A stretch of DNA of 33,095 bases from Planctomycetota bacterium (GCA_016209585.1 JACQVU010000012.1:1-33095); one strand, 5' to 3'; shown: positions 12,001-31,227, counted from the stretch's first letter. Numbers and translations are program-made. The notes: a model not told the origin generated them from the letters alone.

Positions 12001-15000
12001 GCTTCGCCGCGCCCGACTTCGGCTCCACGGCGCTTGCCTGGACGCTTGACCCCGCCTCCGTCGACACCAATCTGCTCGACGTCTCCATCGTCAACGCCGC
12101 GTCCGGCATCGTCACGGTCACGCCCAAGACCAACGCCTTCGGAAACGACGACATCACCTTTACCCTCACCGACAACAACGGCGGCGTCACTTCCAAGACC
12201 AACGTCACCATCACCGTCCAGAGCGTGAACGATCCCCCCGTCTTCGGCGGCCTGCCCGACGTGGGCATCGCCACCAACTCCGCCGGCCTGCAGGACGTGA
12301 TCGCCCTGCCGGCCTACGCCTCGGATGTCGAGAGTTTCCCCTCGCTGGTCTACACCATCGACTCCCAGTCCAACGCCGCGATCTGCAACGTCACCATCGA
12401 CGGCTCGAACTTCGTCGATCTCGGCGCCACCGGCGCCACCGGCGGAACCAACACCGTGGTCATCCGCTGCTCCGACGGCGCCCCCTCCGACGACAAGACC
12501 GACACCTTCGTCGTCACCGTCGCCGGCGACCTCTCCTGGGTCGGCAAGTGGAACTACCGCAAGAACCTCACCTTCACCGCCGCCGCCGGCGCCTATTACG
12601 CTGACCTGACCATCTCCGACGCCGGAACGCTCGCCCACATGCGCGCCGACCGCGCCGACGTGCGCATCCTCACCGCCGGCCAGGAGACAGCCTACAACCT
12701 CATCACCACCAATCCCCTCCGCGTCCGCTGGAACCTCACCATTCCCGCGGCCGGGTACACGGCCGACACTTACATCTACTACGGCAACCCCGCAGCCGCG
12801 GCGCCCTCGTACTCGTTCACGCCCAACGCCACCTCCCTCACCCCGCGCGTGATGCTGGAAGACTCTACCTTCATCCGCCGCTGGTCCGACGCCATCAACT
12901 GGAGCCCCATCCTGGCGCCCACGGCCTTCACCAACGTCACCGTCAACACCGGCTACACCAACGCCCCGCTGATCGACGCCACCGCCGCGGCCCGCGCGGT
13001 GACCGTCGGCGTCGGCGCCACGCTGGACTTCGGCGAGGGCAACATCACCCTCACCGCCGGCGACGACGTGGCCGTGAACGGCACGCTCACGCTGCGGGAA
13101 GGCTCACGCCTGGCGCTGGTGTCCAACTCCACCACCAACGCCACCACCAAGGGGGTGATCGTCAGCGCCACCGGCTCGCTGTCGGCGAACGGCGCGGCCT
13201 TCGTCTCCGGCAGCGCCGGCGCGCTGACCAGCGAAACGCTCATCTCCGACCCCGGCGCGTTCACCGGCAAGAACTACATCGGGAAATGGATCCACATGAC
13301 CTCGGGCCTGGCCCGCGGGCGGTACTACTCGATTCTGCTCAACAACAACAACTCCCTCACCCGCGCCGATACCTCCAGCGCCACCGACACTGCCGGAACG
13401 CTCGACCCGGCGCTCAAGCGCATTTCGTGCGGGGGCGAGATGATCGCCTCCGACGGCGAACACGTCGGCCGGTACGTGAAAGACCTCACCGGCTCCACCG
13501 GCTATCACCGCATCGTCCGCACGGTGAACGCTTCTCCCGACCTCATCTATCTCACTGGCGACCTCACGAACTTCACCGTCGGTGACGACTACGAGATCAC
13601 CGACGGCGTCCAGGCCGGCGATGGCTACGAGGTGATGCAATTCGCGGAAGTCACCTCCGCTGCCCTCGACGGCGTCTCCAACGGCTACCTCCTGCTGCAA
13701 GACGGGGCCGAGGCCACTCTCCAGCGCGCCGACCTGCACGCCCTCGGCGCCAACTTCACCGACAAGCAGGGCTTCACCGCCAAGGGCATCACGGCCATGG
13801 GCGGCGCGGGGGAGGGCCTTTCGATGAACACCGTCCGCGTCCGCGATGGCTACGTCGGCCTGCGGCTGGAGACCACCACCGACCTGATGGCGGAGAACTT
13901 CGAGGTCACGGGCTGCGCCAGCCACGGCGTGCAGATGGCCAGCGGGTCGTCGCGCGCCCTGTTCAGCACCGTGCGCCTGGCCAGCAACGGCGGCGACGGG
14001 CTGCGCGCGGAAGCCGCGGGCGGCACGGGCGCGGTGCTGTACGACGTCACGGCGGCGAGCAACGGTGGCGCCGGTCTGCGCTTCCTGTCCGGGACGGGCA
14101 GCGTGGCCATCATCAAATGCGCGGCGTACTCCAACGGAGGCGAGGGCATCGTCGCGTCCTCGCTCGACTCGTTCCGGGTCTCGTCGTCGCTGGTGTTTGG
14201 CCAGCGGGCGGGAACCGGGCGCGGCGTTGACTTGGCGGCGGCGACGGACGTGGTGCTCACCGATGACACGATCGAGGCGAACCTCGTGGGGGTGCGCGCC
14301 GCCAACGACGTCACGGGCCTCACCATCTGGGGCGGAAGCCTGGGGTTCAACCAGCCCAACGACACGTGGCAGGCGCAGATGGGCGCGGGCGGGTCCGGCG
14401 CGGTGGTGCAGATGCGTGGGGCGTCGGTGGCGGAAACGAACGTGTTCGACCCCGCGGGCATCGACCAGGCCGGGGATCTGGTGATGAGTCGCGGCCACAA
14501 GACCCCCACGGGCGCGGCGAAGGGCGCAACCTACATCTGGGGCGACTACTCCATCGCCGGAGCCTCCACCGAGAAGTTCAACCGCGCCGACGCCTCCTAC
14601 GCCTCGGCCGCGTCCACGCCGCGGGTGCTGCGGGGAAACAGCAGCGTGGGGGCGGTCAGCACGTCCGACGCCAACGCCACCACCAGCGCCTGGGTGGTGA
14701 CCTACGACAGCGGCGTCGGGAAGTGGACCGTCTTCAATTCGCTCACCGGCGACCAGACGAACGTCGCCACGAGCGGCGTGCCCTATACTTCCGACGGCGG
14801 CGAAGTGACGTTCACGGTCACGGAGTCGTCGCCGCTCCCCTCCGACCTCATCGACTTCGTCACGCTGGCCGCCTCCGGCGACGCGAACACCAAGAAAAGC
14901 GTCTTCTTCGGCCCCACCGACGCCGGTTACAACGGCGGCCTCTCGCGGCTCACGGTTCCAGCCACCTCCACGCTTCAGATGTTGGGGAGCGCGGCCGGTC

Positions 15001-16130
15001 CCACGGCCGTCTCCGGGATGGACGCCAACACCCGCTACCTCTTCCGCGTGCAGGGAACGGTCAACGCCGACCAGTACGCTTTCACGCAGCCCGCCGTATC
15101 GGGGGTGGAGATCGACGGCGCGGCCACGGTGACGGCGCTCTCGAACGGCGCCTTCGACCTCCCCGCCGCCTCCGGCTCGCTGTTGAACTTCTCCACCTAC
15201 ACCGGGGCGGAACTGGTCATTTCCGGCTGCGCGTTCGAGAACTCCGCCGGCGCGGCTGGGGCCTCCAACGTGAAAGCCACCAGCGCCACGACCGACGCGG
15301 TCCGTTTCTCTTCCTTCTCCGGCTCGTTCGCCGGCGAAGACAACGACGACGACCCGGCGGAGCGGGTGCTCTGGGGTTCCGTCAACCTGCCTGACAAGGT
15401 GTACGCCGCCGATCCCCGCCTGGGCGCGCGCGCCGAGGTGGCCGGCGGCTTCAACGTGGGGACGGTGGTGTACGGCGACCTGCTGAACGACCGTATCGCC
15501 GGCCTGGCCTTCACCGCGCGCTACAAGGCCATTGACGCCGTGGTCGCCAAGAAGATGCGCGTGCAGGTCGGCACGGCGGCGGGCCTCGCCGACCTCTGGG
15601 ACTCCGGCATGGTCCGCGTGCCCGACCTCTCCAACAACGACCAGGGATACGACCTGCTCTACCGGGGCGCGTCGCTGGCCTACGGCGTCACCTATTACTA
15701 CCGTGTCCGCTTTGAGCAGGCGACCGGCATCCCCAGCCCGTGGGTCTCCTCCCAGTTCACCGTGCAACGCCCCGTGTCGCGCACCACGGCGGCGGGCACG
15801 TTCCGAAACGCGCCGGGCGGTCTGATGATCCGCGGCCGCGCGGTGGGGGCGCAAGCCTTCCTCGCTCCCACGGGAGCCACTTCCGCCTCCGTTGACGTCT
15901 GGGTCAAGAAGAAGGCCGGGTACAGCGGGGAGGCCACGCTCACGCTCTTCGACCCCGCGGGCAACCAGGCCGCGTCGATCAGCACCGACGCCGGCTCGAA
16001 CGACGCCTGGAAGAAGTACACCATCGCCGGCGCCATCTCGCAGTCCGGCGGTTGTCGGTTGGAGTTCTTCCTGCCGGACCCGGCGTCGGAAGTTTACGTT
16101 GACGACGTGGTGGCGACGTTCTCGCCGTAG
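1..16130 (+). CDS. Giant repetitive surface/adhesin-like protein, 5'-partial (>5,357 aa in the window). It combines beta-helix-like N-terminal repeats, 6 x (FG-GAP/VCBS propeller + Ig/cadherin-like) modules, DUF2341-like and PbH1 parallel beta-helix regions, and a C-terminal jelly-roll-like domain.
   Basis: A single uninterrupted frame runs from nt 3 to the TAG at 16128-16130. The GTG at 57 is not the real start. Codons 3-56 (ANVTLTNNSSIDLTGTITV) continue the same repeat seen later (ANITLTSNTTVNLSGTTTV), so the gene extends upstream of the window. Recurrent Ca-binding FG-GAP loops are present (ADFDNDGDLDxxF, EDFNNDGxxDxV, AADFDxDGxxDF, AGDFDGDG). Ig-like units have the form LxWSVDxxxVNTALF...ITPVAxxxGxDDITxxLxDxNG...TDVTVTV. 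Confidence 0.9.
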   Translation, partial: ANVTLTNNSSIDLTGTITVAGTLNASNAGTSIAFLGSVLQTSGAGVINVAGALTAGATSVLDLYDGATGGTLKFTATSGTPMPDTFGTVDFQGSTVEYESLFISDVTMQTRYNAAASTISYNNLIIDNAAAATIKAVTPAGTLLKVDGTLTVDDGTFTPAGNGDFNNVTIDSGQGELFEGGANTYTVSGNWSNAAVGNYSAGTSTVDFDGTGTVTLSTFNNVIISAGTRTIITSNTITVNGTLEMKGGATWALAGFDPVVTGLATATGNFTISSSVAGTLALNGGLTVSGGDLTLSAGAATTVTVSNTATTVNATRALTVGANITLTSNTTVNLSGTTTVTGVLNAGATTAIAFTGGTLATSGAGTINVTNASGVFTESGTSIIDLYDGATAGSLTFSATSGTPMPNTFDTVDLAGSTVTYNAVVIAADTVIQTQYAGGNISYYNLTLQNGGATGAQYVTTGAGTLVVANTLTIDNRAGVGVGEFAPATNGDFANVSILGGATFFAGSYSHTVSGNWANSGTFTAGTSTVEFDGAGGGTASVTLNGTSSFNNVRLNKSGGATLTVSAAMNVNGTAQFTAGRISHSTLAVTIVGLSTFDGSVTIQATTGAMTLSGGWAFTNGTLLTASTPTIVVAGTGSESGTSTLDLYDGTSGGTLRFTSASGTPMPATFDTIDFGTNSTIEYESTPTADVTVQTTYAGGTISYYNLTIDNGAGAAFKMITPASPLLKVDGTLLIDDGNFSLGGNADLNNVTIGGTGASEKLIIAGAGATVTVSGAWTNSIGAAGLDAGTSLVEFDGAGAVTASGAQTWYDVKINKSGGGTVTSTGVWTISRHLTLQAGTWDQGTANQAHTVAGDWTAAGGSFTADSGTITFNGTGTQTLTAASNFYNLSVTGTSNTVQTASNITAGGTLTVNNTFNLTASNSLSVTGAVTIGASGTLTFAGTNTVTFSSTVAQDGVLTFSGAATVTVGGNVTSTGGVTSFDGGGSMSVTGIYDMDAGAGARLNVNAATVTLSSYLRGRVAGQQVNITSGSLTCAYFSNAGSPWWSYFDLNVTGAGMFKTTGTTSQGSYGAVSITGAGSLVAQGSGTYYTRFFGTVTLGNSGAVIDVNGQLRIDAGGTLTAAGFAPKIYVAEDFLAGTPSGYGTFTPGNSEVIFDGTLAAVVYPTTFYDLTINKSAAVTVTQSSTGTPIVVQNTFTVQGSGTYTANSKAHDFNDVTITAGTFNATAVTHTVSGNWSMTGGTFTNTGSTIKFDGTGTIASTGAFDGFEVAAGAGTHTVSGAVTVSGVGTITSGTLAVNSSVTLTLNGAMTVNGGALTSAGTLAVNGGWTDNAGTVNCTGGDAVLGGSSGTAFTSKIGSVFYDLTLNKNALATTVTYSGDVAVSRNLTLTRGTFDMQNASTIGVSDATTLNVAATNGKLRAMGTSAANRITIEGDTATPADGFTFDVYGVLEARNFRVINPDANGLRVHPGATVIELNYATFDYPTSGGCLLNITGVAAGFPTTNQGSSFSDNGLPTGTISNVKADATTVSVEFTDFSGSLAHNVVVAENRDDDPMDRIRWRDASFPTISSLADNIPVRQNSPQIVDLSAFEFDVEDGGGQRFIAVGDDTGRVFVVEVLGGGSFGAAVQLTDTSSYVRGVGVADFDNDGDFDVVFAAGNGNAYRIKRKSISSPLVAGDFGSPAIIGAFTAATYGMDIGVEDFNNDGFMDFVVSANNAYYTLFKNNGNGTFQTTLLTSTGPANGRAKTAADFDRDGAADFVSLDSGTTNVYFWKGFGDGGFARSTQSAAVTATNGYGVAAGDYDGDFLPDLMVENSGTGLFSFLKGLGNGRFAAPASAGQTAPATGAIGFDAYDVNSDGKMDVVVSMGAGYDLLYYPGNGNGTLGAAVTIQLNFTTSASYTLAAPTHGNTRLNWSVDTDTVNPALMSISVSNSAADQITITPVASATGSDDVTFILSDSTGFVSLKTDVTVNVNAASAAAPVISSRLDNISVSYNQPLNVDLSQFGSDPDQVWGRDYFVTDNDSSNVYLVQINGDGTYGAPVNFGDQGNYIRGSAVADFDNDGDLDFIIARNADVQLYRRVSGGASIETTDFLGPTLLGPFTSSTWGMDLACEDFNGDGSMDIVFSGNNGYYYCFLNDGNGRFAALTLTTAGPSAGRGKAAGDFNGDGFLDFISADSGTTTLHVWQGDGAGNFARTDLATVLPTADAYGLTAGDFDGDGKDDAVANDTSGNLYFLKGTGNGTFEARVLIEPSPTTATAGGVALDRGDFNGDGNLDLVVCDDPDDDLLVLSGNGDGTFAAAVTVAANFTTGTERMVAAPTHGSRVLAWSVDPASVNTALLSATISDVNAGILSITPVTGQSGTDEITLILSDNNMGTVSKTDVTVTVSPFVGNPPVVEATADNFTTTDDTVLKVDLSRFGWDPDDANGRSFVVVGDDSTRLYAMAYNGDGSFGSPVSLGDVGNTIRGAGIADFDNDGDLDVVFGDGSGNAWFIQRVAHSSPLQAADFTTKVLAGTFSASSYGMDICVEDFNNDGKSDFIVGGNNGVYTMFRGNGNGTFTTSVIDPANPANGRAKDAADFDEDGFMDFVSLYSGAGNLYLWRGNGAYAFSRTNYAAAAPTADGYGIAAGDFNHDGHQDVVVQNNVTGLFYFLAGKGDGTFYAGVSTGQSVPAGAVNFDAVDMTGDGKLDLLVVANAVDTSFRVFPGNGDGTFSAATLIPATFSSTNLVAACPDYGSTTLTWSVDAPSVNTALFSASVTDATADTLTITPVASAFGQDDITLVLTDSNSGVTQKVDVTVQILSAAAAGDPVIQNSLDAIRVREDTVRQVDLSGYGYDPDSANGKPFICYADENGIFWVCESTGAGTWGTPISLGDLGGSLNGYGVADFDNDGDLDIVYARNNDTCYILRRIAVSVPMVAGDFAPTVNIGAFNDGGSPGHGMDVATEDFNHDGNMDFVVSGNNGDYRLFKGTGLGTFTMSTLDAAVPGSGRGKDAADFDNDGNPDFVALENTNAYIHLWKGDGQGNFQRLEIVGGVPVANSYGCAAADFDSDGDADLIVNNTTGGVYYVPGNGNLSFGSPVLLFTITGETNNIGMDAHDWDNDGLPDLLVSADVANDVIYYRNTTSGGTVSFAAGVNVHADFTATTNRGVACPNFGSKKLRWSIDAASVDTNVFTAEITSTVTQRLTITPVAGASGTDDITLVLNDANGGQTQKTNVTVTVSAVADGNPLIEGLFDNLTFRQNQIGFIDASAFGFDADAANGKPYFVVNDDDTNFYVVQINGDGTFGTPVNLGNWGGSDNVHGVAIADFDNDGDLDILFGDDDGKVMIVRRIANSIPLVASDFSAKAVAGTFTSASWGMDMACGDFNNDGNQDAVISGNNGVYALFIGRGDGFFDTTEITASGPANGRGKDAADFNGDGKIDFASICSGTRHLTLWFGDGAGGFTETTYNNFIPVADSYALAAGDFDGDGRADLVISNDTTGAFSFYKGAGAGTFASGVATGITHTGDSGVDAVDFNGDGKLDLIISQDSNNTAVFLYTGVGNGTFNNAGSIAVTFTNNNRNVATPDYGSKALTWSVDPATVNTALFNITTENGPAALFSVTPVAGQSGSDDVTFVLTDNNGGTVQKTDVTITYTAVAYANPLISAKLDNFTTPEDTGFTFDLSRFGSDPDGGNGKHYVVATDDTGNVRTIPLNLDGTYGAAIVLGDLGDLIEGIGIADFDNDGTLDYVFADGVATYGEQVEGGGQISELFFAKRVGTSNTMSSDWAIPVPVGEFTASGPSSYDIFLGWTTPTNYGMDICVEDFNNDGKMDLIVGGDWTVIDLFIGNGDGTFEKTTVTSSLTGNTRAKDAADFDRDGNMDFAMTLSNDNEIYVHMGDGAGGFTTSTLTNYAYNSGSYALAAGDFDGDHLPDLVTGNSGNGRYYFIKGNGDGTFQTGVECGTQDAAFTKIAGNATLDAIDVNNDGLLDLIIHYDSGHTVRVYTGNGNGTFAFTNGAPILTTMSGTDLGFAAPDFGSTALAWTLDPASVDTNLLDVSIVNAASGIVTVTPKTNAFGNDDITFTLTDNNGGVTSKTNVTITVQSVNDPPVFGGLPDVGIATNSAGLQDVIALPAYASDVESFPSLVYTIDSQSNAAICNVTIDGSNFVDLGATGATGGTNTVVIRCSDGAPSDDKTDTFVVTVAGDLSWVGKWNYRKNLTFTAAAGAYYADLTISDAGTLAHMRADRADVRILTAGQETAYNLITTNPLRVRWNLTIPAAGYTADTYIYYGNPAAAAPSYSFTPNATSLTPRVMLEDSTFIRRWSDAINWSPILAPTAFTNVTVNTGYTNAPLIDATAAARAVTVGVGATLDFGEGNITLTAGDDVAVNGTLTLREGSRLALVSNSTTNATTKGVIVSATGSLSANGAAFVSGSAGALTSETLISDPGAFTGKNYIGKWIHMTSGLARGRYYSILLNNNNSLTRADTSSATDTAGTLDPALKRISCGGEMIASDGEHVGRYVKDLTGSTGYHRIVRTVNASPDLIYLTGDLTNFTVGDDYEITDGVQAGDGYEVMQFAEVTSAALDGVSNGYLLLQDGAEATLQRADLHALGANFTDKQGFTAKGITAMGGAGEGLSMNTVRVRDGYVGLRLETTTDLMAENFEVTGCASHGVQMASGSSRALFSTVRLASNGGDGLRAEAAGGTGAVLYDVTAASNGGAGLRFLSGTGSVAIIKCAAYSNGGEGIVASSLDSFRVSSSLVFGQRAGTGRGVDLAAATDVVLTDDTIEANLVGVRAANDVTGLTIWGGSLGFNQPNDTWQAQMGAGGSGAVVQMRGASVAETNVFDPAGIDQAGDLVMSRGHKTPTGAAKGATYIWGDYSIAGASTEKFNRADASYASAASTPRVLRGNSSVGAVSTSDANATTSAWVVTYDSGVGKWTVFNSLTGDQTNVATSGVPYTSDGGEVTFTVTESSPLPSDLIDFVTLAASGDANTKKSVFFGPTDAGYNGGLSRLTVPATSTLQMLGSAAGPTAVSGMDANTRYLFRVQGTVNADQYAFTQPAVSGVEIDGAATVTALSNGAFDLPAASGSLLNFSTYTGAELVISGCAFENSAGAAGASNVKATSATTDAVRFSSFSGSFAGEDNDDDPAERVLWGSVNLPDKVYAADPRLGARAEVAGGFNVGTVVYGDLLNDRIAGLAFTARYKAIDAVVAKKMRVQVGTAAGLADLWDSGMVRVPDLSNNDQGYDLLYRGASLAYGVTYYYRVRFEQATGIPSPWVSSQFTVQRPVSRTTAAGTFRNAPGGLMIRGRAVGAQAFLAPTGATSASVDVWVKKKAGYSGEATLTLFDPAGNQAASISTDAGSNDAWKKYTIAGAISQSGGCRLEFFLPDPASEVYVDDVVATFSP
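90..2640 (+). repeat. Three divergent tandem copies of a ~260-320-aa N-terminal repeat unit inside the giant CDS
   Basis: The signature block occurs three times. Copy 1: LDLYDGATGGTLKFTATSGTPMPDTFGTVDFQGSTVEYES (nt ~183-302). Copy 2: IDLYDGATAGSLTFSATSGTPMPNTFDTVDLAGSTVTYN (~1152-1268). Copy 3: LDLYDGTSGGTLRFTSASGTPMPATFDTIDFGTNSTIEYES (~1935-2057). Each is followed by I(S)YYNLT(I/L) and (H/Y)TVSGNW motifs. The window-edge residues suggest a further copy upstream. Confidence 0.8.
4693..12224 (+). repeat. Array of six ~1.24-kb protein-coding modules, each an FG-GAP/VCBS beta-propeller plus an Ig/cadherin-like domain
   Basis: Module starts were read from the recurring (N/D)P(P)(V/L)I..LDN......(V/F)DLS.FG.D(P)D motif at nt ~4693, 5931, 7164, 8406, 9658 and 10894. 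The next unit begins at ~12225. Spacings are 1238, 1233, 1242, 1252, 1236 and 1331 nt. Module 6 is longer because of an insertion (ADGVATYGEQVEGGGQISELFFAKRVGTSNTMSSDW...). Confidence 0.85.
12225..12528 (+). other. Terminal cadherin-like/Ig domain of the giant protein, with no propeller attached
   Basis: VNDPPVFGGLPDVGIATNSAGLQDVIALPAYASDVESFPSLVYTIDSQSN...VVIRCSDGAPSDDKTDTFVVTV. The VNDxPV start and TV-ending strand are typical of bacterial cadherin-like repeats. Confidence 0.55.
12529..12830 (+). other. DUF2341-like domain within the giant protein
   Basis: WNYRKNLTF...YADLTISDAGTLAHMRADRADVRILTAGQETAYNLI...LRVRWNLTIPAAGYTADTYIYYGNPAA matches my remembered DUF2341 pattern (W.yRk.itv ... D(i)RF.d..g..l ... 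vWVkv..l.....iy.YYGN). Confidence 0.55.
13830..14350 (+). other. Parallel beta-helix (PbH1-type) repeat region within the giant protein
   Basis: There are about 22-24-aa periodic coils: ASHGVQMASGSSRALFSTVRLASNGGDGLRAEAAGGTGAVLYDVTAASNGGAGLRFLSGTGSVAIIKCAAYSNGGEGIVASSLDSFRVSSSLVFGQ... The repeated (S)NGG(D/A/E)G(L/I) turns are typical of right-handed beta-helix proteins. Confidence 0.6.
15760..16127 (+). other. C-terminal jelly-roll/CBM-like domain of the giant protein. No recognisable sorting signal.
   Basis: ...ASVDVWVKKKAGYSGEATLTLFDPAGNQAASISTDAGSNDAWKKYTIAGAISQSGGCRLEFFLPDPASEVYVDDVVATFSP*. The (E)VYVDDV ending and alternating beta pattern resemble carbohydrate-binding/galactose-binding-like modules. 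I saw no LPXTG, PEP-CTERM or T9SS-type tail. Confidence 0.35.
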
Positions 16131-16145
16131 GGGCATCGGATCTCC

Positions 16146-16471
16146 ATGGGTGACATCGAGGCGTACCCGAGGGATCCGCGCGGCGCGTTGTGCCTGGTGT
16201 GGGGCGAGTCCGCGCCGTGAGCGGAACGGAGGGCGGCATGCGGACGCCGATCACCGTCGAGTGGATTCGGCGGTGCGCGGAGCGGCAAGAGTACATCACA
16301 TCCCGTCACGCCGCTGAGGAGATGCTGGACGATGGGTTGGAGGAGCCGGTTGCGCTGTCAGCCGCGTCAGCGGGCGGTCGATCATCCGGGCGGGGCGGAT
16401 CGCGCGGAACCGGCGCCGGAAGGGCCTGTTTTTCCAGCGGCGGGGCTGATGGGTGGCGCGGGGAGCGGTAG
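16146..16471 (+). pseudogene. Frameshifted, mosaic DUF4258-like (toxin-family) gene fragments
   Basis: Frame 0 at 16146-16220 reads MGDIEAYPRDPRGALCLVWGESAP*. This resembles the central G(E)IIE.YP.D.P.PS.L.LG block of DUF4258 proteins. Frame +2 continues GRVRAVSGTEGGMRTPITVEW, like GRPLHVV....IITVY. The same frame then shows a DUF4258 N-terminal-like block, YITSRHAAEEMLDDGLEEPVAL (ATG at 16238, preceded by GGAGGG), which decays into Gly/Ser/Arg low complexity. The order (middle/C-terminal part first, then an N-terminal part) and the frame changes indicate remnants rather than an intact gene. Confidence 0.35.
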
Positions 16472-16583
16472 CAGTGCCGCGATGAGATGCTCTGGGCGGA
16501 GTTTCTCCGCGGTGGTTGCCACGTCTTCGGGAGGTCTGGTAGGGTACTCGCCCGGAGACACCGACGACCGGTCGTTCACGTTC

Positions 16584-19500
16584 ATGCTCGCTGGAAAACC
16601 CTTTTGGCGGATCGATACTCGCGGTCCCGCGAGGGAGATCCGCGACGCCGCGCGAACCGCGACCACTGAAGAAGACCTCAAAATACGGGTGGAGCCGCTG
16701 CTTCAGGCGGTCTTTCGCGAAACCGGCGTTGACGTCACCATCCGGCAGTACGAGAAGACCACGGCGGTCACCGCGAAGCGCATCGACGTCGTCTACGGGT
16801 ATCTCGTTATCGAGTACAAGGCGCCCGGAAAACTCGGGAACGCGCGGGCCCTCGACGGGGCGATACAGCAACTTCAGGGTTACCTCCAGGAAGAGTCTCA
16901 GCGCCACGCGGGTGACGCGGAAGGATTTCTCGAAAAGGCGGTCGGCGTGATCATCGACGGCGAGCAGATCGCTTTCGTGCGTTACAGCCGCAAGTCGCGC
17001 CTCTTGCCGCCCCCTATTCCACTGGACGATCAGAAGGGTCGGGATCTCTTCCCTTCGGCGACGCCGCGCAAGGGGTTCCAGGTGCAGGGGCCTTTCGCGG
17101 TCGACGGAGAAAGCCTGGCGTGTCTCCTGATCTACGTGCGATCCGCCGCGCGCCGGCCGCTCCGCGCGGAACACCTCGCGGAGGTTTTCGGGCCGGACAA
17201 TGAAGTCGCCCGCGTCGCCGTCGCCGAACTCTATTCCGCCGTCATGCGCGGCCAGCGCCCGAGCGCCCATTCGCGGGTCGAAACTCTTTACCGAGAATGG
17301 GAACGCATCTTCGGCGCCGTCTACGGCGAGCGCCTTGAGAAGGCAGAAGCGGCAGCCAACGAAACCGCTCGCCTCTATGGCATCGCGACTGGTGTCCGCA
17401 TCAAGCCGCTGCTGTTCGCGATTCACACCTACTACGGCCTGCTCATGAAACTCGTCGCCTCCGAGTTGCTGGCCCTGCAGAAGGAGGAGTTCCGGTCTCG
17501 CTCGATCGTCGACGGCCTGGAGGCCGCGGATGACGCGACGCTTCAGGAGCGGTTGACCTATCTGGAAAGCGGCGGCGATTTCCGCGCCGCGGGCATCACG
17601 AACTTCCTCGAGGCCGACTTCTTCGGGTGGTACCTCGACGTCTGGAGCCGGAAGATCATCGATTCCGTGCGCGGCATGATACGCGCGTTGGCCGGTTTCG
17701 AGCCGGCGACACCGGTGCTGGAACCGGACTGGACCCGCGATCTCTTGCAGAAACTCTACGAGATGGTGGTGCCGCGCGCGCTTCGCCACGGTCTCGGCGA
17801 GTATTACACGCCGGACTGGTTGGCGGACTACCTCGTGGATCGGAGCGGGTACACGGGCGATCCCGCGACCCGTTTTCTTGACCCGGCGTGCGGATCGGGG
17901 ACGTTTCTGGTGCAGGCGATCCGCCGGGTGACGGAGCACGTGGCAGCGAAGGGCAGCGTGGCGTTGAAAGAAGCGGGGCGGGCAATCGTGGCCGGCGTCG
18001 CCGGCTTCGATCTGAACCCTCTCGCGGTTCTGGCGGCGCGAACGAATTCCCTGATCGCTTTCGCGAAGTTCCTCCCGCACGTCAGGCCGATTTCGATTCC
18101 GGTCTATCTGTGCGATTCCGTCGCGCCGCCGGATCAGGCCGAGGCGAGCGACGGCAATTCGAGGCAACTGTATCCCGACGACACCATCGTCTTTCGCACC
18201 AGGGATCACGACTACGTCTTTCCACTGGCGATGAAAGACACGGAACGCATCGCGGACTTCTGCGGTCTCGTGCTGCAAGGGGTGGCCGGGAAAATGGTAC
18301 CCGCGGCCTTCCGGAAACTCCTGACCAGGAAATTTCCGCTGGCCGAGGCCGAGCAGGACCGGCTGATGGAGATTTACAGCCACATCAAGCAACTCCACGA
18401 CGAGAAGCGCGATGGCATATGGGCACACTACATCAAGAACGCCTTCGCGCCGGTGTACGTGGGCAAGTTCGACTACGTCGTGGGAAACCCGCCGTGGATC
18501 CGTTGGGGCTATCTTTCCGACGAGTACCGCGCGCGCACGCTTCCACTGTGGCACGGTTACGGTCTCTTCTCCCTCAAGGGCCACGAGACGCGCCTTGGCG
18601 CGGGCGAGAAGGACTTCTCCATGCTTTTCACGTACACCTGCGCGGATCGCTACCTGAAAGACGGCGGCACGCTCGCGTTCGTGATCACGCAGGAGGTGTT
18701 CAAATCCAAGGGCGCTGGCGAGGGGTTCCGCCGTTTCCGCATTGGCGACAAGGGCGCGCCGCTCAAAGTGCTTTGGATGGAAGACATGGTGCGCCTGCAA
18801 CCCTTCCAGGCGGCGAACAAGACAACGATCTTCGCCGTCCGGAAGGGCGCGGCGACGATCTACCCGGTTCCCGTGGTCCAATGGACTCGGAAGAGCGGTG
18901 TCGGCAAGATTCCGCCGGAGTGGCCGCTGAGCGAAGTGCGCGACGCCACGGAGCGCGTGGAGCAAGTCGCCGTGCCCGTGGATGCGGCCAAGCCCGTTTC
19001 CTCCTGGCAAACGGCGAGTCGCCCGGCGCTTAAGGCCTTTGGGGCAGTGAAAGGCGCGAATGCGTACAAGGCCTACCTCGGAGCCCGTGTCGAGCCCTAT
19101 GGCGTGTTCTGGCTCAACTTCATCGAACTCCGCCCCGATGGGCGGATCGTGGTCGAGAACCAGCACGATCGCGGCAAACGCGAGATCAAGCAGGTTCGCG
19201 ACGCCATCGAGTCTGATCTGGTCTATCCGGCGGTGGCGGGGGGGGATCTCACTCGGTACGGTGTCAACAAGCATTTCTATGCGCTCGTGTGTCAAGACCC
19301 ATCCCGTCGCTCGCCGTTCTCCGAAGATTGGATGATTGAGAACGCGCCGCTCACGCTCGCCTACCTCCATCAGTTTCGGGACGTGTTGCTTTCACGTGGC
19401 TCGAACGTGGTGAGGCAGTTCGCCGAAAAGACCGAGTTCTACGCGATGTACGGCATCGGTCCATACACCTTCGCACCCTATCGCGTCGCCTGGAAACGCA

Positions 19501-19877
19501 TGGCGAGCCACATGGCTGCGACGGTGCTGTCGAAACTCGACACGCCCTTCGGCCCGAAGCCCGTGATCTCCACGGATACTACCTCGTTGATGGTCGCGAC
19601 CTCTCGCGCGGAAGCGCATTATCTCTGCGCGGTGTTGAATTCGGACATCGTCAACGCCTACATCGCCAGTTTCTCTTCCGGCGGGCGCGGTTTCGGCGCG
19701 CCGTCGGTGATGTGGAATCTCGGCGTTCCGAAGTTCGAGAAGAAGAGGGCGCTCCACATGGAACTCGCCGAACTTTCCGAAGAGGCTCACCGGCGCGTTC
19801 AAAAGGGAATGCCGATTGCGGATGTGGACGAACAGGTGAACCTGGACGTGCGAAACCTATGGAATATCAAATCCTGA
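16584..19877 (+). CDS. Type IIG/IIL-like bifunctional restriction-modification enzyme: N-terminal PD-ExK nuclease, helical spacer, gamma-class N6-adenine DNA methyltransferase and C-terminal target-recognition domain
   Basis: The nuclease motif RIDVVYGYLVIEYK (D68-X8-E77-X-K79 counted from the ATG at 16584) lies at nt 16785-16820. GEYYTPDWLADYLVD sits before motif I. AdoMet motif I is FLDPACGSGTFLV (nt 17880-17909). Catalytic motif IV is VVGNPPWIRWG (NPPW at nt 18486-18497). The C-terminal part has a TaqI-C/TRD-like block, EAHYLCAVLNSDIVNAYI. The ORF is open from 16332, so the start is uncertain. 16584 is preferred because it removes Arg/Gly-rich junk, avoids the upstream fragments, and places the D/ExK near residues 68-79. 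Confidence 0.8.
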   Translation: MLAGKPFWRIDTRGPAREIRDAARTATTEEDLKIRVEPLLQAVFRETGVDVTIRQYEKTTAVTAKRIDVVYGYLVIEYKAPGKLGNARALDGAIQQLQGYLQEESQRHAGDAEGFLEKAVGVIIDGEQIAFVRYSRKSRLLPPPIPLDDQKGRDLFPSATPRKGFQVQGPFAVDGESLACLLIYVRSAARRPLRAEHLAEVFGPDNEVARVAVAELYSAVMRGQRPSAHSRVETLYREWERIFGAVYGERLEKAEAAANETARLYGIATGVRIKPLLFAIHTYYGLLMKLVASELLALQKEEFRSRSIVDGLEAADDATLQERLTYLESGGDFRAAGITNFLEADFFGWYLDVWSRKIIDSVRGMIRALAGFEPATPVLEPDWTRDLLQKLYEMVVPRALRHGLGEYYTPDWLADYLVDRSGYTGDPATRFLDPACGSGTFLVQAIRRVTEHVAAKGSVALKEAGRAIVAGVAGFDLNPLAVLAARTNSLIAFAKFLPHVRPISIPVYLCDSVAPPDQAEASDGNSRQLYPDDTIVFRTRDHDYVFPLAMKDTERIADFCGLVLQGVAGKMVPAAFRKLLTRKFPLAEAEQDRLMEIYSHIKQLHDEKRDGIWAHYIKNAFAPVYVGKFDYVVGNPPWIRWGYLSDEYRARTLPLWHGYGLFSLKGHETRLGAGEKDFSMLFTYTCADRYLKDGGTLAFVITQEVFKSKGAGEGFRRFRIGDKGAPLKVLWMEDMVRLQPFQAANKTTIFAVRKGAATIYPVPVVQWTRKSGVGKIPPEWPLSEVRDATERVEQVAVPVDAAKPVSSWQTASRPALKAFGAVKGANAYKAYLGARVEPYGVFWLNFIELRPDGRIVVENQHDRGKREIKQVRDAIESDLVYPAVAGGDLTRYGVNKHFYALVCQDPSRRSPFSEDWMIENAPLTLAYLHQFRDVLLSRGSNVVRQFAEKTEFYAMYGIGPYTFAPYRVAWKRMASHMAATVLSKLDTPFGPKPVISTDTTSLMVATSRAEAHYLCAVLNSDIVNAYIASFSSGGRGFGAPSVMWNLGVPKFEKKRALHMELAELSEEAHRRVQKGMPIADVDEQVNLDVRNLWNIKS

Positions 19878-20704
19878 ATCCAGGGAACGCCGAGTACCCG
19901 AAGCGGCTCGTCCAGCGGATGGGTACGGATGCGCCAACGCTCTACTGGAACGGCCCGCTTCGCCTTCTTGAGCGGTTCACGATGGCCGTCGCTTCGGCCG
20001 ACCACACGCCAGGAAAGGCCATGGTGGCGACGTGGGACATGCTGTTCACCATTCGGGAGTTCGGCCTGAACTACATCGGCGGTTGGCATGCGGTCATGGA
20101 AACGGAGATTTTCCGCCTCGCGCTGGATCGCAAAACCGACAAACAGTACACCCGATCGCTGGTGATGTTCACTGCCCGCGGGCTGGCGCGCGAGACCTGG
20201 GACGGCTTCCTCGGCGACCGCTTCGGATACCGGGGGCCGTTCACCGGATTCCCGGAGAAAGAGGAATACTACCGTCGCGGGCGCGACGGGGAAGTGCTGG
20301 TGCTCTCCATCACCGAGCCGGACTTCAAGAGGATGCTTCTCACGAACGTTCGCCGCCGCAATTTCGTCGCCTGCATGCTGGCCGACGTGGTCTACATTCC
20401 GTTCGCCGAAAAAGGGAACAAGACCTATCAACTGTGCAAGCAAGTGGTGGCGAGCGGCGTTCCGATTTTCACCTGTGACTGCGACGTGAACCATGACCTG
20501 TTCGACCTGGGAATACCGAAATTCAACCGCAAGAACGTCGGCAGGCACCTGGAAAGCCTCGGCGCTTCGAAAGAGGCTGCGCCGCCGTTTCCGCCCCGCG
20601 AAGAGAGGGCCGCAGAGAGCGCGCGCCATCAGTCTCTCGTGCTGTCGCGGCCCGAACCTCGGCGGGTCGGCGGCAAGCAGCGCGAGTTGTTTCCCAGGAA
20701 GTGA
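19859..20704 (+). CDS. Divergent DprA/Smf-like (SLOG/Rossmann-fold) protein, 281 aa, translationally coupled to the RM gene
   Basis: The ATG at 19859 lies 19 nt inside the end of the RM gene (TGA 19875-19877). It aligns by eye to DprA. YPKRLVQRMGTDAPTLYWNGPLRLLERFTMAVASA matches YP..L..i.daP.vLy.kG.l.ll....vAvVGSR. LNYIGGWHAVMETEIFRLAL matches ivSGlA.GID.aAH.aAL. EVLVLSITEPDFKRMLLTNVRRRNFVACMLADVVYIPFAEKGNKTYQLCKQVVASGVPIFTC matches lvlSEy.pg..p....FP.RNRIIAGL..gvivvEA..rSGSLiTa..A.e.GrdVFaiP. It has no SAM or winged-helix DprA end domains and carries a basic, disordered C-terminal tail. Confidence 0.7.
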   Translation: MEYQILNPGNAEYPKRLVQRMGTDAPTLYWNGPLRLLERFTMAVASADHTPGKAMVATWDMLFTIREFGLNYIGGWHAVMETEIFRLALDRKTDKQYTRSLVMFTARGLARETWDGFLGDRFGYRGPFTGFPEKEEYYRRGRDGEVLVLSITEPDFKRMLLTNVRRRNFVACMLADVVYIPFAEKGNKTYQLCKQVVASGVPIFTCDCDVNHDLFDLGIPKFNRKNVGRHLESLGASKEAAPPFPPREERAAESARHQSLVLSRPEPRRVGGKQRELFPRK

Positions 20705-20747
20705 CTCCCACCGGCTGATCGCCACGCTTTGCCGCGAGAAACGCGCG

Positions 20748-22193
20748 CTACACCGTTTCGGAGGCGTTGTACACCGGGATCACCGCGCCGCTGGCGGCCA
20801 CGTTCACCACCGGCGAGTCGGAAATACGCCCCAGGCTGCCCACGTACTCGCCCCCGAAGAGGTAGGGCGACAGGTTGAAGTACTTGCGCTCCAGCGCCAG
20901 CGTCTCGCCCTTGAACACCGGCGCACGCAAGGTCGGCACGTTCACGTACTCCTGCGCCACCCAGTCCGGGCTGCCCTTGCCGGCCTCCACCGCCGCCGTC
21001 CAGGCGGCTGGCTCCGCCACCCGGCCGATGATCACCCCCTTGCCCCCATACCCTCGGGAAGGCTTCAGCACCAGGTTCTCGCGCCCGGCGAGCAGGTGGT
21101 CGAAGAGCCGGCCCCGCTGGCCGTCGGGAAGCGTCGTCTCCTCCTCGTCGCAGGCCCGGGTCCAGGGAATGTGCGCCCGGCAGACGCGGGCTTCCTCGGG
21201 GGTCAACAGATAGTCGAACTCCGGGTTCGAGAGCACCGAGAGAATGTTCTTCTCGCCTCCGATGATCGACCGGAAGGGGTTCACATGGCAGACCTCGCCC
21301 CGCGTGGCCGCCGCGACGTAGTCGGCCAGTTCGTTCGGAAACTCCTTCAATTCCATCGCCTTCAGGCAGCGAATGACGATGTTGTACCGCCTTCCCTCCC
21401 ATTCCAGCCGCCCGCCGGCGCGGCGCAGTTGGCGCGGATCGCAGAAGACGGCGTGCACGCCTTGCGCCAGGAAGTAATCCCGCACGATTTCCGTGTCGCC
21501 CGTGACCCCCGAATGGGCGTAGTCCACCAGCGCCACCGACGGCTCTTCGCGCGGCTCCCGCCGCGGCTGAAACTCCTCCCAGCACTTCATCACCGTGCGG
21601 AACACGGCCGACGTCACCCGCCGCGCGTGGGTCACCCGGCGCGGGGGAACCACGTCGGAGAAGACCGGGACCTCGGCGACGATCTCTTCGTAGGTGTCGG
21701 TCCAGCCCTTGCCGCCCGGGTTGTCGCAGTTGAACTCCACGAACTTCAGAACCTGGCCGTCGAACAGCGCGTCGAGCCGCGCCAGCGGAATCTGGTTGGT
21801 GAAGCCGGGGTCGGCCGCCTGCCACTCAAACGGCACGTCGGCGAAGGTGAAGCGGCGCCGCACCCGCTCGTCGGTCAGCGCCGCCCGCACCACCTTGGAG
21901 ATCACGCCGGCCAGCGTCTCGGAGGTGCGCCGCAAAAGGTCGTGCTCTTCCGGCTCCAGCAGGATGGGCACGAGGGCGATGGGCATCGGCACGCCCTCGT
22001 AGGTGCACCGCCGGCGCACCAGTTCCTCGGCCACGAACTCGTGCAGTTTGCGGGCGATGTGCGGGTGGCGGGTGATCCACGCCACCGTGTCCATGTACCG
22101 CTTGCGCAACGTCTCCAGCGCCACGGGAGGCCCCTTCAACCGCGGTTGGCGTCGCGCGGACGCCAGGCCGGCGCGCGCTCGCCGCGCGGTCAC
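20748..22193 (-). CDS. ATP-grasp-fold amidoligase-like protein (circularly permuted ATP-grasp type 2 / glutathionylspermidine-synthase-like)
   Basis: 481-aa ORF with a GTG start at 22193. ARLDALFDGQVLKFVEFNCDNPGGKGW resembles the (l/f)EfN...P.G signature of this ligase family. LVLKPSRGYGGKGVIIG resembles the ATP-grasp vlKP..g.gG.Gv.iG motif. The exact family assignment rests on memory and was not searched. Confidence 0.55.
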   Translation of the reverse strand: MTARRARAGLASARRQPRLKGPPVALETLRKRYMDTVAWITRHPHIARKLHEFVAEELVRRRCTYEGVPMPIALVPILLEPEEHDLLRRTSETLAGVISKVVRAALTDERVRRRFTFADVPFEWQAADPGFTNQIPLARLDALFDGQVLKFVEFNCDNPGGKGWTDTYEEIVAEVPVFSDVVPPRRVTHARRVTSAVFRTVMKCWEEFQPRREPREEPSVALVDYAHSGVTGDTEIVRDYFLAQGVHAVFCDPRQLRRAGGRLEWEGRRYNIVIRCLKAMELKEFPNELADYVAAATRGEVCHVNPFRSIIGGEKNILSVLSNPEFDYLLTPEEARVCRAHIPWTRACDEEETTLPDGQRGRLFDHLLAGRENLVLKPSRGYGGKGVIIGRVAEPAAWTAAVEAGKGSPDWVAQEYVNVPTLRAPVFKGETLALERKYFNLSPYLFGGEYVGSLGRISDSPVVNVAASGAVIPVYNASETV

Positions 22194-29443: not shown

Positions 29444-29872
29444 TCAGGAGCGAGGCCGCGCCATGAAGACGAGAATCTCGCCGTAGTACCCACCACAAAC
29501 GTCTTCGGGTGATTGGGAACAGATGTCTTCGAGATCGCCCAACTTGTGAAGCCACGAACCGTTCGGACTCTGCCTGGCGGCATGGGTCCACTTGCCGTCC
29601 CTCTGATACAAAGCCACTTTCTCGATTCCTTCTTCCGGATCGGCGTTATCGCATACCTTGTATCCCAACGCTTCGAAAAGGTTCACGAGCACGCGCTGGT
29701 CCTCGCTCAACTCGATACCGTCGGGCCAGTAGTAGCCGCCGGGGTTCGTATCCCACCTTCGATACGTTTCTCCCACCGCGAACGCGATGCAGTTGTACGT
29801 TTTATCCTCCGGGCTGGTCACCCGATACCGATCCGGCTGCAATCGGGGAAAGTCGTTCTTGTCCCAGACCAT
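29444..29872 (-). CDS. Small conserved hypothetical protein with a Cys/His pair suggesting a papain-like (NlpC/P60- or CHAP-like) hydrolase fold
   Basis: 142 aa from the ATG at 29872, which lies 2 nt after the upstream stop. The motifs YNCIAFAVGE...YYWP...LGYKVC...IEKVALYQRDGKWTHAARQSPNGSWLHKLGDLEDI...YGEILVFMARP match a widespread uncharacterised family I recall as YNCIAWA...THAARQL.nG.W.SKLG. The invariant-looking C (NC) and H (THAAR) are spaced as in Cys-His hydrolases. The function is inferred only. Confidence 0.6.
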   Translation of the reverse strand: MVWDKNDFPRLQPDRYRVTSPEDKTYNCIAFAVGETYRRWDTNPGGYYWPDGIELSEDQRVLVNLFEALGYKVCDNADPEEGIEKVALYQRDGKWTHAARQSPNGSWLHKLGDLEDICSQSPEDVCGGYYGEILVFMARPRS

Positions 29873-29874
29873 GG

Positions 29875-30387
29875 TCAGCAGTACCCGTTGCGCGCTCCCC
29901 ATTCCAACCAGGCTTTGGCCATGCGATCGAGAATCCCCGCGTCTTCCGCCGGAACAGGGTTCTCTTCGGTGATGTAGTGAAGAGCCGGAAACCAGTGATC
30001 CGGCCCTTTCTTCAACTCTTCAAAGACGAACGGAAGCGCGGCACGGCCCATGCCGATGATCTTCTGGTATGAGTCGTGCATGCACATGTCGCGAACGCGG
30101 CTGCTAACGCTCGGACGATTGGCGTACCAGTCTTCGGCCAGACGGCGGAACTTCTGACGATTCTCCACGTCTGCGGGCACGTAGAGACCGGGCAACGGGA
30201 GACTCGACCCCTGCGAGAAGCCGCGCTTCGTTGAAGTGACAACTCGCCCCCCCTTGACGGTCACGTGCCATGTGTCCGCCGCCCCGTCGAAAGTGGTTCC
30301 GAAACCAGGCTGGGAGGGATCTTCCGCTTCCAACGTCAGCGGCGCGACACACCCCTCCTGCCGCCTCGGCGTCGTCACAGGGGTCAT
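29875..30387 (-). CDS. Hypothetical protein, 170 aa, middle gene of the three-gene cassette
   Basis: The ATG at 30387 overlaps the upstream stop (ATGA at 30387-30384). The ORF track extends to 30441, but that start would overlap the upstream gene by 58 nt. The C-terminal half, FRRLAEDWYANRPSVSS...HDSYQKIIGMGRAALPFVFEELKKGPDHWFPALHYITEENPVPAEDAG...AKAWLEWG, resembles a recurrent small helical family (hpaY..IigmG..alP.iL.eL....dhWf.aL..iTg.nPv). I know of no assigned function. Confidence 0.6.
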   Translation of the reverse strand: MTPVTTPRRQEGCVAPLTLEAEDPSQPGFGTTFDGAADTWHVTVKGGRVVTSTKRGFSQGSSLPLPGLYVPADVENRQKFRRLAEDWYANRPSVSSRVRDMCMHDSYQKIIGMGRAALPFVFEELKKGPDHWFPALHYITEENPVPAEDAGILDRMAKAWLEWGARNGYC

Positions 30388-31181: not shown

Positions 31182-31227
31182 GGCGACTGCTCCATTCTAC
31201 AGCGAGTCCGGTTCCGATCGTAGCCGG

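Follow-up and report, generated by a model that had tools for sequence, protein, structure and literature searches.

A Type IIG restriction-modification enzyme is followed by a conserved partner protein with a predicted DprA-like fold

We analyzed a 33,095-nucleotide stretch of DNA from a Planctomycetota bacterium (GCA_016209585.1 JACQVU010000012.1:1-33095, hereafter the window), in which two overlapping genes on the plus strand lie between unrelated neighbors. Gene A (16584..19877) runs from an ATG at 16584 to a TGA at 19875-19877 and encodes a protein of 1097 aa, and gene B (19859..20704) runs from an ATG at 19859 to a TGA at 20702-20704 and encodes a protein of 281 aa. The two genes share the 19-nt overlap ATGGAATATCAAATCCTGA (19859..19877), where A ends with LWNIKS* and B begins with MEYQIL. 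A longer open reading frame for A opens at 16332, but homologs align from residue 1 of the 16584 start with the consensus MxxxKxxWQINTE, so 1097 aa is correct, and the MEY start of B is shared by all of its homologs. Upstream lies a gene for a 5357-aa repetitive protein (57-16130), separated from A by a GC-rich spacer of 453 nt (16131..16583) that presumably holds the promoter, although a promoter and terminator scan of 16000-20900 found no sigma-70-like or other promoter-like site and nothing else useful. A 77-codon ORF in this spacer (16238-16471) was suspected to be a DUF4258-like remnant, but this idea was dropped because it has no Pfam hit. Downstream lie convergent housekeeping genes encoding an ATP-grasp-like protein, an alpha/beta hydrolase, a 322-aa ORF that was left out of the profile search, a tricorn-like protease and a phosphodiesterase. 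Nothing examined in the window is a specificity subunit or a BREX or DISARM component, and no PglZ, BrxC, BrxL, DrmA, DrmB or DrmC partner was found in the window or conserved across the loci described below. The original prediction of a fused nuclease-methyltransferase gene overlapping a DprA-like gene, with no such partners, is therefore correct as an observation.

To determine the identity of A, profile searches were carried out. A matched the PADLOC profile PDLC03630 (REase_MTase_IIG) at E=1.4e-252 over profile positions 135-1082 of 1100, a near full-length match that includes the C-terminal target-recognition region, and it matched Pfam N6_Mtase and Eco57I, whereas the TaqI_C hit alone was below threshold. 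The PD-(D/E)xK nuclease motif DVVYGYLVIEYK (16785..16820; D68, E77 and K79) is invariant in 26 sequences, including plasmid relatives of 29% identity. The SAM-binding methyltransferase motif I, DPACGSG (17880..17900; residues 433-439, with D433, P434, C436, G437 and G439 invariant), precedes the catalytic N6-adenine methyltransferase motif IV, GNPPW (18483..18497; G634-W638 invariant). These data show that A is an intact Type IIG restriction-methyltransferase by sequence, as had been predicted. The additional label of "IIL-like" is unsupported, since among the MmeI_N, MmeI_hel, MmeI_Mtase, MmeI_TRD and MmeI_C domains only MmeI_Mtase was hit, at 21.5 bits against a cut-off of 27. PglX and DrmMI hits to A cover only the shared methyltransferase core. 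An AlphaFold2 model of A had a mean pLDDT of 53.6 and a pTM of 0.36, and was too poor to be used for fold comparison.

B has no Pfam hit and no extra domains, and its fold was examined with an AlphaFold2 model (pLDDT 85.9). The 14 best Foldseek matches in the PDB are DprA or ShosA (E=9e-12 to 1.7e-9, TM 0.55-0.75), indicating a Rossmann-like DprA fold at an identity of only 15-19%. We reasoned that if B were a canonical DprA/Smf, it should carry the hallmarks of that family. However, the window protein has no hit to PF02481 even at E<=1, its homologs have only faint or weak precomputed hits, and the Rossmann domain starts at residue 1 and is followed by a disordered 44-residue tail in place of flanking SAM or C-terminal winged-helix (DML1/Z-alpha) domains. 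In addition, a profile alignment to ShosA placed GVVGTR against aviaaD of B, so that the position of the ssDNA-binding arginine of DprA (R52 of HpDprA, the H. pylori protein, and R139 of ShosA) is occupied by Asp48 (20000..20002), which is invariant in the alignment of B homologs. The "RN" motif of DprA is retained as invariant R167 and N168 (20357..20362), R167 being equivalent to HpDprA R143. B also carries a family-specific insertion (20177..20293; residues 107-145, RGLARE..DRFGYxGPFTGFPxKEEYYRR) with many invariant residues, and short DprA-like relatives match only in two stretches on either side of it. Based on these data, B is not a canonical dprA.

The loss of the arginine bears on two possible functions. 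B might keep the classical DprA role as a recombination mediator, loading RecA to repair double-strand breaks caused by self-restriction or processing restricted or incoming DNA, which is consistent with the fold, the RN motif, a mostly basic position equivalent to R170, and the fact that clamp-associated repair factors are common. However, the R52E mutation costs HpDprA about 315-fold in ssDNA affinity, the SAM and winged-helix domains and a PF02481 hit are absent, and no conservation of RecA-interaction residues has been shown, so this role appears doubtful. Alternatively, B might be an infection sensor or antitoxin-like guard, as are ShosA and PsyrA, the DprA-like partners in the ShosTA and PsyrTA defense systems, and might hold A or a host process in check until phage ssDNA, RecA filaments or a nucleotide signal titrate it away, which would release restriction or trigger abortive infection. 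ShosA (8zva) is among the top structural matches and is a DprA-like antitoxin that acts through ssDNA and RecA without binding its toxin (PMC12961424), weak PADLOC hits to PsyrA and ShosA were obtained, and copies of B that lack A resemble orphan antitoxins. Nevertheless, R139 is essential for ssDNA binding and antitoxin activity of ShosA, the PsyrA hit covers only residues 3-45 at E=8e-5, the partner is a self-protecting restriction-modification enzyme and not a ShosT (PRTase) or PsyrT (RecQ-like) homolog, and this model does not explain the tail motif described below. We consider it unlikely, and the earlier suggestion that B senses ssDNA is likewise weakened by the invariant Asp.

To test whether the pairing is local to this genome, we examined gene neighborhoods across homologs, a key check that had been named in advance. 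B has 201 homologs of 50-65% identity. A lies directly upstream of B in 33 of 35 genome loci and in about 69 of 86 informative loci overall, from several phyla, and B lies downstream of A in 6 of 6 look-ups that started from A. The overlap is conserved in 43 of 43 intact pairs, being 19 nt in 36 and 16 nt in 7, which implies coupled translation, and all 120 listed A homologs (of 3594 hits) end in an LWNI-type tail (LW[NTSI]..), mostly LWNI... Programmed frameshifting to make an A-B fusion was rejected because there is no slippery heptamer in the overlap. Pairwise identities of A and B are correlated (r=0.944, Mantel p=0.001), indicating co-divergence. No third gene is conserved, and the flanks differ between lineages, for example inside a V-ATPase operon or between a PLP-binding (Ala_racemase_N) gene and a pyrroline-5-carboxylate reductase gene. 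B is found almost only next to restriction-modification genes, at different chromosomal sites and with patchy taxonomy, unlike a core gene whose synteny is unrelated to restriction-modification. Type IIG enzymes are treated as single-gene systems, but this clade (at least 54% identity to A, all 120 listed members) has a translationally coupled second gene. In contrast, plasmid relatives of A at about 30% identity have no B anywhere on the plasmid, and the two whose neighborhoods were inspected show none next door; this comparison leaves out A-family members of 35-50% identity.

Lower G+C of the pair had been suggested from hand counts of single 60-nt lines and taken to fit horizontal acquisition. 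The difference is real but modest, with A at 0.626 and B at 0.617 against 0.66-0.71 for the flanking genes, and is clearer at third codon positions, at 0.79 for both A and B against 0.88-0.94 for seven of the eight other genes measured. Since the window has other low-GC patches (10.5-12 kb and 29.5-31 kb), this supports horizontal acquisition but does not prove it. A tblastn search of plasmids with B and a scan of viral contigs found nothing, giving no evidence that the cassette is carried by a plasmid or a phage, and a repeat search around the cassette found only short chance-level repeats, without target-site duplications or terminal inverted repeats.

The C-terminal tail of B (20570..20701) is poorly conserved and predicted to be disordered, with a pLDDT of 44-52 over the last 30 or so residues, yet it carries KQRELF (20675..20692; residues 273-278 of 281), a short motif of the form [RK]-Q-x-x-L-[LFW] that resembles the beta-clamp-binding motif. 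This motif is present in 107 of 113 homolog tails, against a mean of 7 (maximum 16) in 500 shuffles, and lies at the exact C-terminus in 49. The published clamp-binding consensus is Q-L-x-L-F and is usually C-terminal, as in polymerases, MutS/MutL, Hda and many IS transposases (PMC4549789), and the motif of B fits it more closely than chance conservation would need, although it is short and a conserved tail peptide could bind another partner. A C-terminal protease degron was rejected because 2-19 residues follow the motif in 58 of the 107 cases. To our knowledge, no restriction-modification component or DprA-family protein has been reported with such a motif, and a literature search for clamp-binding motifs together with restriction-modification returned nothing.

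We then asked whether B depends on A. B persists intact in several loci where A is deleted, and it occurs with Type II, Type III-like and DndC-like modification or restriction genes; in one locus (L081), a Type II system replaced A in situ. Q-anchored motifs are kept in most of the B copies that lack A or sit beside other restriction-modification types (QQLSFI, QMSFF, LQGK[LF]NF and QTE[IM]VF, with a looser QLSFV in another locus, L045), which argues for a universal host partner, not A, as the target of the motif. This weighs against the possibility that B is an obligatory structural or activating subunit whose tail docks onto A and without which A cannot cleave or methylate, as do the absence of B beside the plasmid relatives of A and the close fit of the motif to the clamp consensus. 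Tight coupling, co-divergence, fusions of a DprA-like domain to a Type IIG-like scaffold and the conserved insertion, which could be an interface, speak for such a subunit, but it appears unlikely. The survival of B without A could also mean that B has a role independent of A, or that it is merely a passenger with no functional link; the latter is very unlikely given the conserved overlap, the correlation of identities, the occurrence in multiple phyla and different insertion sites, and the parallel association and fusions in a second Type IIG-like family.

Taken together, we tentatively suggest that this is a horizontally mobile two-gene restriction-modification cassette, in which A is a complete and, from its intact motifs, probably active enzyme with a PD-ExK nuclease, a gamma-class N6-adenine methyltransferase and a target-recognition region in one chain, and B is a dedicated accessory subunit made by coupled translation from the same mRNA. 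In this view, the tail docks B on the beta sliding clamp (DnaN), and B would sit at replication forks or on clamp-marked DNA and tune its partner, most likely favoring methylation and restraining cleavage on newly replicated, not yet methylated host DNA, which would lower the autoimmune cost of the enzyme, particularly after transfer to a new host. A precedent is that H. pylori DprA binds methyltransferases, stimulates methylation and inhibits restriction enzymes (PMC3597690), but B differs in being encoded inside a mobile cassette and not as a core gene. Independent support comes from the nearest DprA-like relatives of B, which lie in operons with, or are fused to, a second Type IIG-like family, PDLC03628. 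Clamps also load on phage and plasmid DNA, so clamp tethering alone would not distinguish self from foreign DNA. What the analysis itself establishes is what A and B are, their coupling, conservation and co-divergence, and the existence of the motif, while cleavage and methylation by A, clamp binding, physical contact between A and B and the direction of regulation are inferred from sequence and analogy. The interpretation in the original prediction is thus partly supported: the type of enzyme, the DprA fold, the coupling, the recurrence in unrelated lineages and the lack of an earlier description hold, but it missed the tail motif, the association of B with other restriction-modification types and the wider link between DprA-like and Type IIG-like proteins. 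The pair is not described in PADLOC-DB or in the papers searched, which did not include Burroughs et al. 2015 on SLOG proteins, and the MANTIS preprint found in that search does not involve DprA or SLOG proteins.

Type IIG enzymes are annotated and engineered as self-contained single genes, and a conserved, co-evolving and translationally coupled partner means that one clade needs, or benefits from, a second component that defense-system finders currently miss; co-expressing B may be needed to clone or use these enzymes. The finding also widens the roles of the DprA/SLOG fold in defense beyond ShosA, PsyrA and ThsA. If the tail does bind the clamp, this would be the first link that we know of between a restriction-modification system and the replisome, and it would make directly testable how such systems, especially those with asymmetric or hemimethylating sites, avoid cutting freshly replicated host DNA and survive transfer to a naive host.

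A broader possibility, which we regard as speculative and rather unlikely, is that DprA-fold proteins are a general, so far unrecognized accessory class for methylation-based defense. B would then be a clamp-tethered adaptor, portable between Type IIG, Type II and Type III-like systems, that couples these enzymes to the replisome for replication-coupled maintenance methylation and self-protection, a bacterial counterpart of DNMT1-PCNA, and a sister DprA-like family would do a related job for PDLC03628-type Type IIG-like and HKD-SNF2 systems, with which it is sometimes fused. The outgroup family of short DprA-like proteins lies in operons with a PDLC03628 Type IIG-like methyltransferase. The cassette in the window has only A and B, with no helicase, PLD or ATPase partner as in multi-gene methylation-based systems with helicase-nuclease partners (DISARM DrmD/DrmMI-like, Hma-like), whereas in the two outgroup loci where the upstream gene is visible there is also an HKD-SNF2 protein.

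To establish whether the two genes exist as proposed, we first re-examined the open reading frames of the window (33,095 nt, 66.8% G+C), and both were found as described in the original prediction. Gene A runs from ATG 16584 to TGA 19875-19877 and encodes 1097 aa, gene B runs from ATG 19859 to TGA 20702-20704 and encodes 281 aa, and the two share the 19 nt ATGGAATATCAAATCCTGA. A longer ORF opens at 16332, but homologs from other genomes align from residue 1 of the 16584 start, so the originally proposed start of A is right, and the MEY start of B is shared by every homolog. Upstream of the pair lies a gene for a highly repetitive protein of 5357 aa (57-16130, + strand), which starts 57 nt from the contig edge and contains long internal repeats and FG-GAP/VCBS-like DFDNDG units. 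ARAGORN called a 91-nt tRNA-Thr on the opposite strand within this ORF (12390-12480, - strand), which is probably spurious. Between this giant gene and A is a GC-rich spacer of 453 nt (16131-16583) that holds a 77-codon ORF (16238-16471) with no Pfam hit and no promoter-like site. Convergent housekeeping-type genes lie downstream of B. The G+C content is 0.626 for A and 0.617 for B, compared to 0.66-0.71 for the neighboring genes, and at third codon positions it is 0.79 for both A and B, compared to 0.88-0.94 for seven of the eight other genes measured. This fits acquisition of A and B as one unit. No flanking repeats, integrase or genuine tRNA were found to mark the borders. A second patch of low G+C (0.60-0.64) was observed at 29500-31200, where an ORF of 265 aa (30384-31181, - strand) has no Pfam hit and a third-position G+C of 0.77, similar to A and B, and it may be another foreign gene.

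To determine what A is, its product was searched against the PADLOC and Pfam profiles. A matches the PADLOC Type IIG model PDLC03630 at E=1.4e-252 over almost the whole profile, and it also matches Pfam N6_Mtase and Eco57I. We then aligned 24 homologs of 55-76% identity together with two plasmid relatives of 29% identity, in which the nuclease motif D68...E77-x-K79 (DVVYGYLVIEYK), the methyltransferase motif I (DPACGSG) and the methyltransferase motif IV (GNPPW) are all invariant. Therefore, A is a complete Type IIG enzyme as judged from its sequence, and it is probably active. The Type IIL-like character that had also been suggested for A was not borne out, since A is not a member of the MmeI family (Type IIL) by Pfam, and its hits to BREX, DISARM and MADS profiles cover only the shared methyltransferase core.

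The product of B has no Pfam or NCBIfam hit, and its only PADLOC hit is a weak partial match to PsyrA. B has 201 homologs of about 277 aa and 50-65% identity, many of which carry a faint PF02481 signal. An AlphaFold2 model built from 27 sequences is confident (pLDDT 85.9), and its 14 best PDB matches are all DprA or ShosA, namely the DprA proteins of S. pneumoniae, H. pylori and R. palustris and the DprA-like antitoxin ShosA, with E=9e-12 to 1.7e-9. A sequence profile finds only those same proteins. Therefore, B has the DprA fold. However, B is not a canonical DprA. Its Rossmann domain starts at residue 1 and there is no SAM or winged-helix domain, it has a conserved family-specific insertion at residues 107-145, and it belongs to a small and tight family, with only 24 representative clusters scoring E<=1e-30 among 1.84 billion proteins. 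In addition, ShosA R139 and HpDprA R52 align with an invariant Asp48 in B (GVVGTR in ShosA against aviaaD in B). R139 is required for the ssDNA binding and the antitoxin function of ShosA, and the R52E mutation lowers the ssDNA affinity of HpDprA about 315-fold, whereas the RN motif, which contains the equivalent of HpDprA R143, is retained in B as R167 N168. The proposal that B acts as an ssDNA sensor is weakened by these data. We consider it unlikely that B is a guard or sensor like ShosA or PsyrA, and more unlikely still that it is a RecA-loading repair factor.

A further feature of B, which had not been noticed in the original prediction, is found in its C-terminal tail. The last 44 or so residues of B are disordered and poorly conserved, apart from one invariant Gln. 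Among 113 near-full-length homologs, 107 carry [RK]-Q-x-x-L-[LFW] in the tail, compared to a mean of 7 and a maximum of 16 in shuffled tails, and in 49 homologs the motif is the exact C-terminus. In the window the motif is KQRELF (20675-20692). This is the form and position of the bacterial beta-clamp-binding motif, from which clamp binding by B can be inferred. A second B subfamily carries QQLSFI, or a C-terminal LQGK[LF]NF or QTE[IM]VF, and the last two correspond to the hexapeptide class of the motif.

Recurrence of the pair in unrelated genomes had been proposed as a test of the association, and we examined it in both directions. Starting from B, a scan of one genome per species found 35 loci from Verrucomicrobiota, Lentisphaerae/Victivallales, Planctomycetota, Chromatiales, several "Deltaproteobacteria"/Thermodesulfobacteriota, WOR-3 and Gemmatimonadota, and in 33 of these 35 loci an A homolog of 55-67% identity ends just inside B. 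A metagenome scan added 58 loci, and over both scans A is adjacent to B in about 69 of 86 informative loci. Starting from A, all of the homologs examined, at least 120, end in an LWNI-type tail, mostly LWNI.., the peptide that encodes the start of B, and six of six look-ups showed B downstream with a 16- or 19-nt overlap. In 43 intact pairs the overlap is 19 nt in 36 and 16 nt in 7, and the pairwise identities of A and B correlate at r=0.944 (Mantel p=0.001). The pairing is therefore conserved, and it is better supported than could have been known from the sequence alone; that B is merely a passenger gene appears very unlikely. No third gene is conserved across the loci. The cassette sits in unrelated places, for example inside a V-type ATPase operon, between a PLP-binding (Ala_racemase_N) gene and a pyrroline-5-carboxylate reductase gene, and between M16 peptidase genes and a rubrerythrin gene. 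It was not found on plasmids or viral contigs, and relatives of A at about 30% identity on plasmids have no B anywhere on the plasmid, with none next door in the two neighborhoods that were inspected. Additional genes were seen beside the pair in individual lineages. In one locus (L108, 5120-5623), a 167-aa PLDc_2 nuclease-like gene overlaps the stop of B by 4 nt in the order A-B-PLD, and a HicA toxin gene lies upstream. In one B subfamily (locus L026, 8913-10931, and also L038-L041), a 673-aa protein with a PDC-M30A-like N-terminus and a C-terminus resembling radical-SAM/spore-photoproduct-lyase is encoded directly downstream of B, both with A upstream (L040) and with a ResIII/D12-methyltransferase system upstream (L026), and it may be a third component in that lineage.

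We next examined the loci in which B is not accompanied by an intact A. B remains an intact ORF, and in most cases keeps its tail motif, in the loci with a reduced, replaced or missing A. A has been reduced to an N-terminal stub in loci L062, L066, L073 and L074, and to N- and C-terminal stubs in L050 and L051. In locus L081 (290-2976), an N-terminal stub of A (aa 1-46) is followed by a Type II methyltransferase, a Type II restriction enzyme (PDLC03442) and then an intact B, which looks like in situ replacement of the Type IIG gene by a classical restriction-modification pair. B follows an N6_N4 methyltransferase plus an unknown 330-aa protein in L056, and a D12 methyltransferase, a Schlafen-like gene and a ResIII helicase in L026, L038 and L039. 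In L045 (4417-6439) and L046, the genes upstream of B are DndC-like, REase-like and two unknowns, and B precedes a V-ATPase subunit A gene. This is the same location where, in L096 and L097 (6001-10055), the A+B cassette sits inside the V-type ATPase operon between subunits E and A with a 4-nt overlap to the upstream gene, and the site looks like a swap hotspot. Two loci, L043 and L088, have B alone. In several MAGs (loci L006, L021, L024, L034 and L035), the A homolog is split into two or three tblastn segments by frameshifts, or by an internal deletion in L034, while B appears intact, which could reflect either decay of A or assembly errors. B therefore behaves as an accessory associated with restriction-modification systems in general and, as inferred from these loci, is harmless on its own, and its tail motif does not depend on A. 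That B is an obligatory subunit whose tail binds A remains possible but is considered unlikely.

Taken at the level of sequence, the analysis shows that A is a complete Type IIG enzyme, that B is a diverged DprA-fold protein made from the same transcript, as judged from the conserved start-stop overlap, and that the two are inherited together. The binding of the B tail to the beta clamp and the modulation of the partner enzyme by B are inferred, as is the enzymatic activity of A. We tentatively favor a role at replicating DNA, in which B would promote methylation and restrain cleavage of newly made, unmodified host sites. This hypothesis is supported by the finding that H. pylori DprA binds methyltransferases, stimulates them and inhibits restriction enzymes (PMC3597690), and by the observations that B is portable between restriction-modification types, that it is tolerated alone, and that its canonical ssDNA pocket is disabled. 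The functional interpretation offered in the original prediction is only partly supported, and clamp tethering is a more specific and testable hypothesis. Type IIG restriction-modification systems are already known, and what is new here is the dedicated, conserved DprA-fold accessory. No description of such a pair was found in searches, of an incomplete literature, on DprA-like or SLOG proteins with restriction-modification, methyltransferases, Type IIG enzymes or defense, or on a clamp-binding motif with restriction-modification, and PADLOC-DB v2 has no model for B.

To examine whether the association extends beyond the B family, we looked at its next-closest relatives, which are short DprA-like proteins of about 215 aa that pass the Pfam PF02481 threshold and resemble PsyrA. 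In three of three look-ups (loci L102, 1-7660; L103, 1-7645; L104, 2-3604), they lie at the end of operons with a different Type IIG-like family (PDLC03628, E=0, Pfam MmeI_Mtase plus Eco57I). In L102 and L103, the two loci where the upstream gene is visible, there is also an HKD/PLD-SNF2 protein. Variable defense cargo, including an AbiL-like PDC-M38 pair, RhuM-Fic and DUF3800, sits between these genes and the DprA-like gene, and we did not find this system named. Proteins of about 700-760 aa (P0304, P0321 and P0350) fuse a PDLC03628-like scaffold to a C-terminal DprA-like domain. The scaffold keeps its SAM loop (DPxCGxG), but the catalytic NPPY is replaced (FDVVLGDSA and similar), so the methyltransferase module is probably inactive. 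Therefore, a link between the DprA fold and Type IIG-like methyltransferases appears in two distant families and also as gene fusions. Two other DprA-like architectures were observed, a DprA-like domain fused to an IS200-type Y1 transposase domain (P0272, 448 aa) and a DprA-like protein with a precomputed PF11867 hit (P0438, 229 aa).
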